Virus record (IMG/VR): IMGVR_UViG_3300033121_001869
Span: 45,076-109,075 of that record
Source: a virus
Taxonomy: Duplodnaviria > Heunggongvirae > Uroviricota > Caudoviricetes
Reading direction: 5' to 3' (one strand)
DNA length: 64,000 nt
Position 1 is the stretch's first letter. Every line of letters starts with the position of its first letter. Under the pieces are notes generated by a model that ran no database searches, was not told where the DNA came from, and saw only the letters and a program-made list of their open reading frames with translations. Both the position numbers and the translations under genes were made by a program. Positions 44,846 to 52,151 of the stretch are shown here, in pieces.

Positions 44846-45568
44846 GTGAAAAATGTTAAAAAATATAGAGATTTCTGTAATGAAGAAATAAACCTAAAAA
44901 ATGCACTTATAGGTGGGGCAATAGCCGCATCCACAATTGGTTGTGATTCAACAGAATTAAATAAGAGACAAGGCAGTGAATGGATCACAACACCAACTCC
45001 AATTGAAAGCGCAACCGAAATAAAAGAACTACCAAATAAATTTGAGATGGATGAAGTTATAATGACAATAGGAACAGATATGAATATTAATGTTGGTGAC
45101 CAACAAGTAGGAAAAGTTGAAGAAAGAACGCTAAATTGGGGTAAAACATTTGAATACTTTGATAATAAAGGTCACAAAATAGCAACAGGAAAAGAAAAAG
45201 CACTGAGTTTATTAACTACAATAGATATCTATGACAGTAATGATAAAAAAATAGGAACATTTGAAGAAGAATTATTTAAAAATTTCTTCTCTATAAAAAC
45301 ATATTATTCAATAAAAGATGCCTCAGGCAAATTAATTGCAGAATCAGAAAAACTGGATTGGTTATCAACTAATATAGAAATATTCTCACCGAGTGGTGAA
45401 ATTCTATGTAAAATGAAAAGACCGGCATTTAACTTACTAAGTGATAGTTGGAAAGTGGAGGTACTTGGAAATATTGATAAACGTCTAATAGTTTTCATAC
45501 CTTGTTATAAAACATCAGCCGATAATGAAAGGAAAAGTGAGGATGATAAAAATAACAATGAAGACTAA
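44846..45568 (+). CDS. LURP-one/scramblase-like protein with N-terminal tag and lipobox-like segment
   Basis: MKNVKKYRDFCNEE-INLKNALIGGAIAASTIG-C; repeated beta-hairpin units; DKRLIVFI. Confidence 0.65.
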   Translation: MKNVKKYRDFCNEEINLKNALIGGAIAASTIGCDSTELNKRQGSEWITTPTPIESATEIKELPNKFEMDEVIMTIGTDMNINVGDQQVGKVEERTLNWGKTFEYFDNKGHKIATGKEKALSLLTTIDIYDSNDKKIGTFEEELFKNFFSIKTYYSIKDASGKLIAESEKLDWLSTNIEIFSPSGEILCKMKRPAFNLLSDSWKVEVLGNIDKRLIVFIPCYKTSADNERKSEDDKNNNED

Positions 45569-49030: not shown

Positions 49031-49462
49031 AAGTTATGGAAGTAGGACTCGAATTTATAATTACGGCTTAATACTTATTCTTTGAGTATATATCCAAGCT
49101 TTAAATCTTTTTTCTGAAGCTATGTCTTCTTGTATTTTATATTCAACATATTTTCTATTTGTCATTTTAGATGTATGCTCAAATCTATCTTTGTATTTAA
49201 AATACGATTCACTTAAATTATATACTTCTTGACCGTCTTTAGTGTCAAAAATAAATACAAATTTTTCATCTAAAATATTTCTTATTTTATCAGATAATTC
49301 AAAGTCCTTATTTTCTCTGGCAATATTTCTATCATAGATTAATTCATCTATAAATTTTCCCTTAAAATCTCCCTCTGATATTATCATAATAATATCAAAA
49401 ATACAAATTAATATTTAAATCAAGAAATGAAAGTTATGGAAGTAGGACTCGAATTTATAATT
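49031..49462. repeat. 32-bp perfect direct repeat at 49031-49062 and 49431-49462
   Basis: aagttatggaagtaggactcgaatttataatt twice, 400 bp apart. Confidence 0.95.
49061..49387 (-). CDS. stand-alone CysRS C-terminal (anticodon-binding-like) domain protein
   Basis: RNIARENKDFELSDKIRNIL...DTKDG. Confidence 0.65.
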   Translation of the reverse strand: MIISEGDFKGKFIDELIYDRNIARENKDFELSDKIRNILDEKFVFIFDTKDGQEVYNLSESYFKYKDRFEHTSKMTNRKYVEYKIQEDIASEKRFKAWIYTQRISIKP

Positions 49463-50121
49463 TTCTGATTTTTATTTAACCATTTTCTTACTGCATTATC
49501 ACTAACACCATATTTTCTACTTGTTGCTGAATAACCAAAATCCTCTATTTCCTTTTTTAGATCTTCGATGTTAGGTCTTTCAACTTTTCTTCTTTTTTGT
49601 CCATAACATTTAGAACAAATTTCAGATTTTCTATCTTTTTTAAGTCCGCACTTACAAATGTTTCTTTTTTTTAAATTTCGTCCAGCAAATGTATCTAATC
49701 CAGCATTGCAATTAGGACAAACAATTCTTAAATTTTGTAGTCTGTTATCATCACAAACTCCATTTATATGGTCTAAAATTAATGCAATTTTCATACCATT
49801 CCAATTCTCGTCTTGACCACATAAGCAACATTCTCGTTTTAAAATACCATCATTATATAATCTATCTTTTAGATGTCCTCTACTAAATGTTGATTTTTCA
49901 ATTAAAATTTCACTAAGTGGTATTTTAGTCTTCAACATCAACATTTTTGAGTAATTTTTTGTAAAATGTTCCGTTGAAATATCATATAGTTTTATAAACT
50001 TTCTCAGAGTAGAGAAGTTCGACCCAGCAATTCCTAATCCAAGTTTATTTAAAACTTCTCTTTGAGTTTTTGATTCTGAAATTATTTTCATCAAATTTTC
50101 TTTAGACCAATTTGCTTTCAT
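49420..50121 (-). CDS. HNH homing endonuclease
   Basis: CCLCG, LDHING..DDNRLQNLRIVCPNCN. Confidence 0.9.
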   Translation of the reverse strand: MKANWSKENLMKIISESKTQREVLNKLGLGIAGSNFSTLRKFIKLYDISTEHFTKNYSKMLMLKTKIPLSEILIEKSTFSRGHLKDRLYNDGILKRECCLCGQDENWNGMKIALILDHINGVCDDNRLQNLRIVCPNCNAGLDTFAGRNLKKRNICKCGLKKDRKSEICSKCYGQKRRKVERPNIEDLKKEIEDFGYSATSRKYGVSDNAVRKWLNKNQKIINSSPTSITFIS

Positions 50122-50196
50122 ATATATTTTTTATTTTTATATATTAAAATGTCTAACTTCTATACCCATTTAGATTCGGATGTTTTACCAATTTTG

Positions 50197-50270
50197 CTAC
50201 CATGGGTGGATTCGAACCAAACCATTATGAGGGTCAAAACCTCATGTCCTGCCAGTTAGACGACATGGTA
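50197..50270 (-). tRNA. tRNA-Gln(TTG)
   Basis: TACCATG acceptor, loop TTTTGAC, GGTTCGAATCC; no encoded CCA. Confidence 0.88.
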
Positions 50271-50276
50271 AATTTG

Positions 50277-50350
50277 ATGTCCTGTTTGGAATTGAACCAA
50301 AATTTTCACTTTCAAAGAGTGATGTAATAAAACCATTATACCACAGGACA
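50277..50350 (-). tRNA. tRNA-Gln(TTG)
   Basis: TGTCCTG acceptor, TCACT-CTTTGAA-AGTGA, TTCAATT T-loop. Confidence 0.85.
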
Positions 50351-50356
50351 ATTTAG

Positions 50357-50428
50357 TTATTGTGTCAAGATTCGAACTTGAATTGCCAACTTCAAAGGAA
50401 GGAGTGTTAGCCATTACACTACACAATA
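50357..50428 (-). tRNA. tRNA-Gln(TTG), two mismatches in the anticodon stem
   Basis: TATTGTG acceptor, CCTTC-CTTTGAA-GTTGG, TCAAG-TTCGAAT-CTTGA. Confidence 0.7.
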
Positions 50429-50430
50429 AT

Positions 50431-50460
50431 AAAAAAACCCAGTCAAGATTGACTGGGTTT
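50431..50460 (-). terminator. attenuator terminator 1
   Basis: AAACCCAGTCA-ATCT-TGACTGGGTTT plus TTTT on minus strand. Confidence 0.9.
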
Positions 50461-50483
50461 AATACTATATTTTTAGCAATAGA

Positions 50484-50540
50484 TTACCTGTCAACCTCTC
50501 GGATGTTATTTTGCTGCTGTTGCTGAGTAATCATTTTCAT
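50484..50540 (-). CDS. Gln-sensing leader peptide MKMITQQQQQNNIREVDR
   Basis: five consecutive Gln codons (CAG CAA CAG CAG CAA); 3' end carries the antiterminator AGGTTGACAGG. Confidence 0.85.
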   Translation of the reverse strand: MKMITQQQQQNNIREVDR

Positions 50541-50611
50541 AAACTTTCTATTTTATCTTTTAATTTTTTAACTGTTGAGAATATCTTTCCAAAATATTCT
50601 GCTCTTTCAAG

Positions 50612-50684
50612 TAGGGTATGCCAGACTCGAACTGACGATCTCATGGTCCCAAACCATGTGCGTTACCAACTACGCTAATACCCT
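50612..50684 (-). tRNA. tRNA-Pro(TGG)
   Basis: AGGGTAT acceptor, CATGG-TTTGGGA-CCATG, TTCGAGT. Confidence 0.9.
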
Positions 50685-50685
50685 A

Positions 50686-50757
50686 TATATGATGCTAATT
50701 CGAACCCACAAACCAAGGCCTCAAAAGCCCTGCTCTACCAATCGAGCTCATCACATC
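50686..50757 (-). pseudogene. degenerate tRNA (anticodon TTG), T-stem unpaired
   Basis: GCTC/GAGC D-arm, AGGGC-TTTTGAG-GCCTT, TTCGAAT with mismatched stem. Confidence 0.55.
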
Positions 50758-50764
50758 AATTTTG

Positions 50765-50835
50765 CGGTCCCTCCCGGAATCGAACACGGGATCACCACCC
50801 ACACTGGTGGTACTCTACCCTTAAGCTAAGTGACC
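50765..50835 (-). pseudogene. degenerate tRNA with non-canonical 6/8-nt anticodon loop
   Basis: GGTCACT/AGGGACC acceptor, CCACC-AGTGTG-GGTGG, TTCGATT. Confidence 0.55.
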
Positions 50836-50894
50836 ATATCCAATTCTATATTTTACCCATTAAACCGGTCTATGAATTGGTAACATTCTCCTTG

Positions 50895-50966
50895 CGGTCC
50901 ATACGGGACTTGAACCCGTTCCTCCAAGTTGACAGCCTGGAAGCTTAACCCATCGCCTAATGGACC
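50895..50966 (-). tRNA. tRNA-Asp(GTC)
   Basis: GGTCCAT acceptor, CCAGG-CTGTCAA-CTTGG, G73. Confidence 0.85.
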
Positions 50967-50971
50967 AGTTG

Positions 50972-51046
50972 CGGACATGAAGGGATTCGAACCCTCGATC
51001 TCGCTCCGTGACAAGGAGGTATGTTTGACCTCTACACCACATGTCC
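50972..51046 (-). tRNA. tRNA-Asp(GTC)
   Basis: GGACATG acceptor, loop TTGTCAC, GGGTTCGAATCCC, G73. Confidence 0.88.
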
Positions 51047-51092
51047 GTTCTGAGAGTTCCTTTTCCTCCACGGAAAGTCACTCACAACCTTG

Positions 51093-51177
51093 CAGTAACG
51101 ACGGGAATTGAACCCGCTACAATATATTCCAATCACAGGGCGACAACCTGCTGCACCAACCATTATGCGCCGCTACT
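51093..51177 (-). tRNA. tRNA-Asp(GTC) with a 17-nt variable region
   Basis: AGTAGCG/CGTTACT acceptor, GCAGG-TTGTCGC-CCTGT, GCGGG-TTCAATT-CCCGT. Confidence 0.7.
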
Positions 51178-51744
51178 ATTTTTAATAAAATTATTTCTAT
51201 AATCAATAACTTTATCAATAATTTCGTGTCTATATTTACTATGTAAATAATTATGATGTGTTGCACAAAGTGGTATTAAATTCTCTGGGTTATTGTTAAA
51301 TTTATTACCATCAAAATGATGAACATCTAATAATTTACTCTCCTCACACACAATACATAAATGCTTATGATTTTGAAAACAAATTTCTCTATATTTTATA
51401 GAATATCGACTTTTTCTTTTATCATATTCATCTATGCTTTTCCAATTTCCGTTGTTTTTACCACTTCTAAACAATGTATTCGAACAAGATATTGAACACG
51501 TTGCTCTTTCTCTTTTACCACCATTAAAAGTTTCAAAATTTTTTTTACAAATTGGACATTCCTTTTCTATTTTTTCATATTTTATTTTTTTACTTTTTCC
51601 ATTGTCAAAATGATCTGTATTTAAATTAAAATCATTTATAATTTTTTTAGCCTTTGAATATCCAACACCATTTATCGGGAGATTTATAATTTTACAAAAA
51701 TCTGAAAGACTATAACAGATATTGATAATTTCATTATAATTCAT
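51163..51744 (-). CDS. HNH endonuclease inside the tRNA cluster
   Basis: CIVCEE..LLDVHHFDGN..NN.PENLIPLCATHH. Confidence 0.88.
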   Translation of the reverse strand: MNYNEIINICYSLSDFCKIINLPINGVGYSKAKKIINDFNLNTDHFDNGKSKKIKYEKIEKECPICKKNFETFNGGKRERATCSISCSNTLFRSGKNNGNWKSIDEYDKRKSRYSIKYREICFQNHKHLCIVCEESKLLDVHHFDGNKFNNNPENLIPLCATHHNYLHSKYRHEIIDKVIDYRNNFIKNSSGA

Positions 51745-51807
51745 AAAACATTTTAATTTTATATATTTAAATGTCTTACTCCCGCTATTTGGGTCAAACT
51801 TATGTTG

Positions 51808-51882
51808 TCTGAAAAGTAGGATTTGAACCTACGATCTCTTACTTCCAGGGTAAGCGAGGACTCCGAGCTCCTCCATTTTCAG
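51808..51882 (-). tRNA. tRNA-Pro(TGG) with C33
   Basis: CTGAAAA acceptor, CTTAC-CCTGGAA-GTAAG, GTAGG-TTCAAAT-CCTAC. Confidence 0.82.
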
Positions 51883-51896
51883 TTTTTTACGCAAAC

Positions 51897-51931
51897 AAAA
51901 AACCCAGTTTGTTTTTTAGACTAACTGGGTT
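51897..51931 (-). terminator. attenuator terminator 2
   Basis: AACCCAGTT-N13-AACTGGGTT plus TTTT on minus strand. Confidence 0.85.
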
Positions 51932-51953
51932 CACCTTATTATAAACGTATTAA

Positions 51954-52052
51954 TTATCCATTTATACCAACACAGTTAGTCTCCAATCGATCGGGTTGAT
52001 CGACAACAACCTGCGGTTGTACTTGGTTAACTATGTTGATTACTTTGTTCAT
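51954..52052 (-). CDS. leader peptide MNKVINIVNQVQPQVVVDQPDRLETNCVGING
   Basis: TAATATATA 6 nt upstream; contains AGACTAACTG complementary to the terminator 5' arm. Confidence 0.78.
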   Translation of the reverse strand: MNKVINIVNQVQPQVVVDQPDRLETNCVGING

Positions 52053-52151
52053 TTTTATTATATATTATAATTGTTAAGTCCCTTTTGGACATTTTTTATT
52101 ATAGAATACAAATATAGATAAGTTTTTTCAAATAAAAAATTATTTTTGAAA

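Follow-up and report, generated by a model that had tools for sequence, protein, structure and literature searches.

The window analysed here is a 64,000-nt stretch (positions 45,076 to 109,075) of IMG/VR virus record IMGVR_UViG_3300033121_001869, a single record of 182,437 bp with 27.7% G+C and 26 tRNA genes. CheckV estimates the record to be 79% complete, and it is probably a fragment or a circularly permuted genome. Nine tRNA genes, called by ARAGORN and Rfam, follow one another 3' of a compact set of elements termed unit 2 (the Pro/Asp gate), in the transcription order Pro(UGG), three Asp(GUC), His(GUG), Pro(UGG) and three Gln(UUG), the last three being preceded by a second such set, unit 1. 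A gene for a 462-aa GATase-domain protein (amidotransferase) lies upstream of unit 2. All elements of unit 2 are found on the minus strand exactly where a first-pass annotation of the sequence had placed them. The features of the locus, in order of transcription, are as follows.

52109..52116, minus strand: TATATTTG, a TAnnTTTG promoter-like element about 57 nt 5' of the leader ATG
52074..52082, minus strand: GGGACTTAA, upstream half of a bipartite promoter-like motif
52059..52067, minus strand: TAATATATA, a general gene-start (promoter-like) motif of the phage, 6 nt 5' of the leader ATG
51954..52052, minus strand: leader ORF of unit 2, 32 codons plus TAA
52028..52040, minus strand: region 1, 5' strand of the protector, 13 bp with 51978-51966
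51990..52025, minus strand: candidate sensing block QVQPQVVVDQPD, leader codons 10-21 (Q10-D21)
51966..51982, minus strand: region 2, the antiterminator 5' strand (51982-51973) together with the overlapping 3' strand of the protector (51978-51966)
51918..51927, minus strand: region 3, the antiterminator 3' strand, combining 5 nt from the terminator 5' arm with 5 nt from its loop
51892..51932, minus strand: intrinsic terminator with a 10-bp stem, a 13-nt loop and the T-run TTTTTTGTTTG
51807..51882, minus strand: tRNA-Pro(UGG), first gene after the unit 2 terminator (ARAGORN; Rfam 51.6 bits)
51163..51744, minus strand: HNH homing-endonuclease-like ORF of 193 aa, between the first tRNA-Pro and the tRNA-Asp genes
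50611..51177, minus strand: three tRNA-Asp genes, tRNA-His, a degenerate tRNA remnant and tRNA-Pro (tRNAs by ARAGORN and Rfam)
50835-50764, minus strand: the tRNA-His gene of this block
50430..50540, minus strand: unit 1, the inner gate, an 18-codon leader with QQQQQ and a strong terminator (2:3 duplex z = -3.7)
50196..50428, minus strand: three tRNA-Gln(UUG) genes, behind both gates (ARAGORN and Rfam)
49420-50121, minus strand: second HNH-like ORF, 233 aa, after the tRNA-Gln genes

The first-pass annotation had listed a tRNA-Pro, three tRNA-Asp and a further tRNA-Pro downstream of unit 2; all of these are present, and the tRNA-His gene, the HNH ORF and the degenerate tRNA remnant are to be added to them. 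The remnant (50690-50760, minus strand, between tRNA-His and tRNA-Pro) retains recognisable D and anticodon arms with a UUG-like anticodon, has a broken T/acceptor stem and is called by neither ARAGORN nor Rfam. The tRNA-Asp(GUC) at 51092-51177 (minus strand) is also atypical, being 86 nt long with a 17-nt variable region that is unusual for tRNA-Asp, and scores only 39.9 bits with Rfam. The 193-aa ORF gives a weak Pfam HNH_3 match (E = 2e-4, under the family cut-off), and the 233-aa ORF is conserved at 40-68% identity and syntenic with tRNA-Gln in more than 80 metagenome loci; the location of these HNH-like ORFs inside and beside the arrays suggests that homing endonucleases shuffle them. Elsewhere in the genome, a search for the Gp23 family (T4-type capsid) found no match but is uninformative, since the control genomes gave none either, and the record opens (positions 1-120) inside what appears to be a reverse-complemented tRNA 3' half beside tRNA-Arg(UCU).

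The promoter-like motifs (52116-52059) stand between the stop codon of the GATase gene and the leader ORF. The TAnnTTTG word occupies an equivalent place in 12 of 14 homologous units and presumably acts as a promoter. Because genome-wide counts of this word show no enrichment over control words, a Bacteroidota host, which its conserved placement before leader units alone would point to, is a tentative assignment. GGGACTTAA occurs only twice in the 182-kb genome, each time 6 nt 5' of TAATATATA and each time at the head of a tRNA-array leader (units 2 and 3, the latter described below), and the same arrangement of the two words exists in the IMG/VR contig L002/L078. TAATATATA itself is present at 52067-52059 and proves to be a general gene-start motif: of its 64 genome copies, 29 precede the ATG of a real ORF by 4-6 nt. 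Such a distribution suggests a general phage promoter yielding leaderless or nearly leaderless mRNAs, and no Shine-Dalgarno sequence is apparent before the unit 2 leader. Many of the genes headed by TAATATATA and an ATG after 4-6 nt (at least 29) begin with MKY or MKH, and in a subset the word AAGGG(G)A(G)C is also found 10-13 nt further upstream. Inside the array, TAAGTTTG at 51802 and a TAAATATATA-like / TAATATATA-like word precede the ATG of the 193-aa HNH ORF, a possible internal promoter that could let the Asp, His and Pro genes escape the unit 2 gate.

The leader ORF was verified at 52052-51954 with the composition first reported, namely 7 Val, 4 Gln, 2 Pro and 2 Asp codons with DQPD (codons 18-21) just before the switch; it has no Pfam match. 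Residues matching the downstream array are gathered in the candidate sensing block, where Gln, Pro and Asp make up 8 of 12 positions (window-corrected p ~1e-3, against a phage proteome in which P+Q+D+H amount to 14%), where 7 of the 8 Gln/Pro/Asp codons can be read by the downstream anticodons under standard wobble, and whose end lies 7 nt before region 2. Over the whole unit 2 leader, taken as a single-unit test, enrichment is not significant (8/31, p = 0.07). Two amino acids do not fit. A tRNA-His gene lies downstream, yet the leader has zero His codons; relatives with tRNA-His genes (L099, L177) have His-rich leaders. Conversely, the caveat raised at the outset, that Val is the commonest leader residue and the cluster has no tRNA-Val, holds: seven Val codons precede an array without tRNA-Val, and the genome's tRNA-Val sits in another array. 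A likely answer comes from locus L105, in which a leader homologous to that of unit 2 (..QVVNPQVDQDPD..) still precedes tRNA-Val(UAC) and tRNA-Val(AAC) genes, so the Val codons of unit 2 were probably inherited, as a relic of an array whose tRNA-Val genes have since been lost or moved.

Three helices had been drawn for unit 2. The antiterminator, in which AGACTAACTG (51982-51973) pairs with CAGTTAGTCT (51927-51918) in 10 perfect base pairs, was verified at these positions; it has a free energy of -12.8 kcal/mol as an isolated duplex, its 5' strand falls with the rest of region 2 within leader codons 24-29, and it is the strongest antiterminator of the family. When the ORF is paired optimally with the 5' arm and loop of the terminator, the duplex is more stable than in dinucleotide shuffles (-17.1 vs -8.4 kcal/mol; z = -4.1, p <= 0.003). 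The protector (52040-52028 with 51978-51966) can be drawn as proposed, with 13 bp, 2 G-U pairs and -14.0 kcal/mol, but is not above chance against shuffles (-16.7 vs -12.8 +/- 2.4, p = 0.06), nor is it conserved family-wide.

The terminator is likewise as annotated, with GC-rich arms at 51932-51923 and 51909-51900, a T-run at 51902-51892 and tRNA-Pro beginning 10 nt later. At -13.0 kcal/mol it is the weakest of the family (the L120 and L115 terminators range from -18.7 to -20.2 kcal/mol), the upper half of the helix having been lost relative to homologues, and a simple terminator scan that calls the unit 1 terminator misses that of unit 2 because of the 13-nt loop. Its AACCCAGT/ACTGGGTT stem core is indeed common to the terminators of units 2 and 1, which had been described as paralogues. 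Because many classes of unit in this group of phages have the AACCCAGT core in their terminators, the resemblance argues for membership of a common family, not for a specific duplication of unit 1. Hairpins of the form AACCC...GGGTTTTT number only 4 in the genome, and 3 of the 4 stand at tRNA-array heads.

Relatives of the locus were found through its short motifs and its neighbours. A search of IMG/VR with the upstream GATase-domain gene yielded no relatives, megablast of 20 kb against a phage genome collection returned nothing, and blastn, a more sensitive search, matched the 4-kb region in the same collection to tRNA and HNH pieces alone. Searching for exact copies of the bipartite motif led to a 276-kb IMG/VR contig with two further units, one with a leader rich in Thr, Ile, Gln, Val, Cys, Arg and Pro codons before Gln, Pro, Thr, Arg, Val, Ile, Cys, Thr and Leu tRNAs, and the other with a leader containing FSHKNFSKSSKWFSPF before Lys, Phe, three Ser, Phe, Trp and Ser tRNAs. 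A looser pattern (GGGACTTAA-N4-8-TAATATA) was rejected, as only one of its 77 loci, L002, was a true relative. The HNH gene behind tRNA-Gln, syntenic with the arrays, served as a handle for 8 IMG/VR and 80 metagenome loci, and further arrays on these contigs were added to the locus set. A mechanical scan for a U-tailed hairpin, an ORF of 12-55 codons whose end lies within 110 nt upstream of the hairpin, and a downstream tRNA then gave 73 unique leader + terminator + tRNA units.

Eleven close homologues of unit 2 were assembled from related phage contigs (L115, L120, L111, L116, L082, L081, L105, L183, L184, L185 and L187). Across unit 2 and these homologues, 93% of antiterminator and 97% of terminator cells are paired, as compared with at most 44% and 59%, respectively, when partners are slid; column shuffles matched the observed pairing in 3 of 500 trials for the antiterminator and 0 of 500 for the terminator. 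When the RNAs are cut before the 3' arm, RNAalifold predicts a single helix, an 8-bp 2:3 pairing with compensatory changes in 4 of its 8 pairs, and for the full units it predicts a 13-bp terminator with compensatory changes in 4 pairs. Two bases of the terminator arm have changed together with both of their alternative partners: a region-3 T>C in L116 is accompanied by A>G in both region 2 and region 4, and a region-3 A>G in L120 by T>C in both partners. Such double compensation would be difficult to account for if either helix were unimportant. The protector, the other member of the proposed three-helix set, is only partly conserved, reaches significance in 2 of 14 relatives and yields no RNAalifold consensus helix.

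The leaders of this family also share their arrangement. A Gln/Pro/Asp block stands just 5' of the antiterminator strand in 12 of 12 units, and Pro/Asp/Gln tRNA arrays follow in all 12. The peptides have in common only a short stretch (xTNC / ANC), and the conserved CTAAC core of region 2 lies in a different reading frame in L084, so that it is the RNA, rather than the peptide, that is constrained. The stop codon lies nearer to region 2 in the relatives, the unit 2 ORF running 2-5 codons further past region 2 than in its closest relatives. In four wastewater RNA-library runs the region is present at 98% of sampled words, in contigs only and with a uniform span that may reflect DNA, and among wastewater strains there is no variation within unit 2 while nearby coding sequence varies.

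The correspondence between leader and array extends to the whole set of 73 units. The mean fraction of leader residues belonging to the leader's own downstream tRNA set is 0.362, as compared with 0.193 +/- 0.012 when leaders and arrays are permuted (z = 13.9, 0 of 5000 permutations), and the match persists among 46 non-redundant leaders (z = 9.9) and at the level of codons read with anticodon wobble (0.318 vs 0.158, z = 15). Matches are concentrated upstream of the antiterminator strand (48%) and fall to background from the strand onward (20%), as would be expected if a stalled ribosome did the sensing. In 62% of the units a 2:3 duplex reaches p < 0.05 against dinucleotide shuffles, and the same shuffle test gives no duplex signal for obviously non-leader ORFs or ordinary gene ends. 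Leader classes (Q/P/D/H, N/L/T/I/V/C/R, K/H/F/W, R/S, Y/E, I/G, Y/K and others) track the arrays: QPQPQHQHQ precedes Pro, Pro, His, Gln and His tRNAs, YKKYKNY precedes Tyr and three Lys, SSSSSSRSS precedes Arg and Ser, YYYEAEG precedes Glu and Tyr, and QQQQQ(Q) precedes Gln arrays. In every unit the sensing block is in frame between start and stop, and it varies with the tRNA set.

Units also occur in combination. No promoter-like word is present before the unit 1 leader, and the tRNA-Gln genes therefore probably need transcripts that have passed unit 2. The proposal of two attenuators in series before tRNA-Gln is strengthened by the relatives, since L120, L105 and L109 likewise have an inner Gln gate behind an outer Pro/Asp/Gln one; in L105 there are three gates in series, with the second leader placed before Asp and Pro genes and the third before four Gln genes. 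In three wastewater runs a variant in unit 1, C>T on the plus strand at 50514, changes a CAG of the leader's Gln run to CAA, a synonymous Gln codon. The genome-wide search for further leader-terminator-tRNA units that had been recommended disclosed a third unit outside the window, at about 173360-173565 of the genome (plus strand), consisting of the GGGACTTAA-N6-TAATATATA motif, a 38-codon leader and a terminator. Its leader is rich in Asn, Leu, Thr, Ile, Val, Cys and Arg, the same amino acids as those of the 15 tRNAs behind it (Leu, Leu, Arg, Asn, Asn, Ile, Thr, Val, Ile, Cys, Thr, Leu, Thr, Leu and Leu).

The original reading of a leader ORF with an antiterminator and a terminator is supported by the compensatory changes in both helices among the 11 homologues and by the family-wide match of leaders to tRNAs. 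With its elements conserved, both alternative helices covarying and its codons matched to the tRNAs behind it, unit 2 is likely to act as the gate of a phage tRNA array by ribosome-mediated (leader-peptide) transcription attenuation; we infer that the ORF is translated, that ribosomes stall on it and that stalling affects termination. The tRNAs would probably be made only when ribosomes decode the leader's Gln, Pro and Asp codons slowly. Transcription would start at the nearby upstream promoter-like motifs, possibly giving a leaderless mRNA, and a ribosome would translate the 32-codon leader while RNA polymerase advances. Slow decoding of Gln, Pro or Asp (perhaps also Val) within codons 10-21 would stall the ribosome 5' of region 2, leaving this strand (AGACUAACUG) free to pair with region 3 and to occupy part of the terminator 5' arm; with the antiterminator formed there would be no terminator, and the polymerase would read into tRNA-Pro and the remaining array. 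Were decoding fast, the ribosome would run over region 2, which region 1 might capture after release, and the terminator would form and stop transcription at about 51895. The three tRNA-Gln genes would lie behind the second, Gln-only gate, and their position behind both gates would explain the Gln codons of the outer leader.

In RNAs lacking the 3' arm, the 2:3 helix is predicted and is lost once a ribosome covers codons 22 onward. When full RNAs are folded to equilibrium with parts masked by a ribosome, every homologue forms the terminator at every ribosome position, so any switch must be kinetic and the choice co-transcriptional; equilibrium folding of full homologue units was rejected as a test of the switch, being invalid for a kinetic one. 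For unit 2, with its weaker terminator, the predicted equilibrium probability of the terminator falls from 0.87 to about 0, but only when a ribosome stalled at codons 4-12 masks region 1. The stall zone fits the geometry of an attenuator. The unit 2 stop codon, however, is placed 17 nt 3' of region 2, and a ribosome terminating there would shield the antiterminator strand only marginally; it may be, as a speculation, that the long protector compensates for this marginal cover.

Several features of unit 2 would also suit an attenuator in decay, that is, a leaky and largely constitutive partial terminator, with the Asp, His and Pro tRNAs made mainly from a promoter before the HNH gene. Compared with its homologues, the terminator has lost its upper half (-13.0 vs about -20 kcal/mol, with a 13-nt loop), the ORF extends 2-5 codons further past region 2 than in the closest relatives, leader and array are mismatched for Val and His, and TAAGTTTG and a TAATATATA-like motif stand before the HNH ORF. 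The mismatches, the possible bypass promoter and the shortened terminator thus leave room for a partly decayed copy; however, the antiterminator, at 10 perfect base pairs, is the strongest of the family, masking of region 1 at codons 4-12 flips the predicted equilibrium (0.87 to about 0), and unit 2 is invariant among wastewater strains in which the adjacent coding sequence varies. On balance, we regard decay as unlikely, and a working attenuator remains the preferred reading.

A mere coincidence of unrelated elements is far less probable still and already disfavoured. The hairpin would then end the amidotransferase transcript, 220 nt 3' of the 462-aa GATase-domain gene, the ORF would be spurious or an unrelated small gene, and the tRNAs would have their own expression signals; that TAATATATA is a general motif of the phage and that whole-leader enrichment is weak in unit 2 alone would agree with this. 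Promoter-like motifs nevertheless separate the GATase stop from the ORF, 11 relatives have kept the ORF with its Q/P/D block as well as both helices, with covariation, the leader-to-tRNA match reaches z = 14 across 73 units, and AACCC...GGGTTTTT hairpins are limited to 4 in this genome, 3 of them at tRNA-array heads. Similarly improbable, to about the same degree, are a translation-independent RNA switch that binds tRNA directly, as T-box RNAs do, and a functional micropeptide gene. T-box RNAs in other bacteria do sense the same physiological variable, tRNA status, and the leaders share the short xTNC / ANC stretch; but Rfam gives zero hits in 51888-52067 even at E <= 1, and so no sign of a T-box specifier loop, T-box sequence or stem I architecture, the conserved stretch is explained by the CTAAC RNA core (frame-shifted in L084) while the rest of the peptide is not conserved, and the sensing blocks, which differ according to the tRNA set, are without exception in frame between a start and a stop.

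Textbook leader-peptide attenuation controls amino-acid biosynthesis and a small number of synthetase genes. Its multivalent forms include the ilvL and thrL leaders of the enterobacterial ilvGMEDA and thr operons, alongside trpL, hisL, leuL and pheL. Like ilvL and thrL, unit 2 has a short ORF with mixed regulatory codons between a candidate promoter and an intrinsic terminator, an antiterminator overlapping the terminator 5' arm, a possible upstream protector and, as the proposed signal, the speed of the ribosome at particular codons. It differs from them in that it would regulate tRNAs rather than biosynthetic enzymes, so that the loop would close on tRNA supply and not on amino-acid supply; it is also phage-encoded, lacks an apparent Shine-Dalgarno sequence on an mRNA that may be leaderless, has a protector that is not conserved, and belongs to gates nested in series. 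The pheST (pheM) attenuator controls phenylalanyl-tRNA synthetase in response to the level of charged tRNA. It likewise subjects a component of the decoding apparatus to attenuation, and differs from unit 2 in having a synthetase as its target, a single amino acid and a cellular genome. T-box riboswitches bind uncharged tRNA directly, without an ORF. They share with unit 2 the reading of tRNA status and the switching of a terminator and an antiterminator, unlike unit 2, which has an ORF and no Rfam match.

Further parallels are found in published attenuators. The attenuation model for pheL has been described (PMC3082878). Leaderless short ORFs encoding polycysteine act as attenuators in mycobacteria (bioRxiv 10.1101/834739) and resemble unit 2 in the leaderless regulatory ORF, and the tandem attenuators of Salmonella mgtCBR, two in series in one leader (PMC3641672), resemble the arrangement of units 2 and 1; the targets and signals of both are others, and neither is known to control tRNA genes. 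In the full-text literature searched, where subscription papers are thinly covered, leader-peptide attenuation is reported for biosynthetic, resistance and other operons and for no tRNA genes or phage tRNA arrays, and attenuator-like leaders of E. coli tRNA-Phe genes, a further possible parallel, were not confirmed there. The mechanism is classical; within that literature, the regulated target, tRNA genes, and the logic of the feedback are new.

It is somewhat more probable than its converse that large phages run a homeostat for tRNA supply, with a codon-matched attenuator for each array and nested gates for hierarchical control of individual amino acids. If so, the phage would top up exactly those tRNAs whose decoding has slowed, for example because the tRNA pools of the host are ill matched to the codon usage of the phage or become depleted as infection proceeds, and attenuation of tRNA genes would appear to close a feedback loop on decoding capacity itself. 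Such control would explain the timing of expression in phages with dozens of tRNA genes, each leader would report the codons that a phage treats as limiting, and the units would supply natural, modular, multi-input sensors of tRNA availability.

Finally, the arrays at two of the collected loci, L098 (G005:10800-14700) and L134, include tRNAs with the stop-codon anticodons CUA (called Pyl) and UCA (called SeC), a hint of suppressor tRNAs or stop-codon recoding in related phages.
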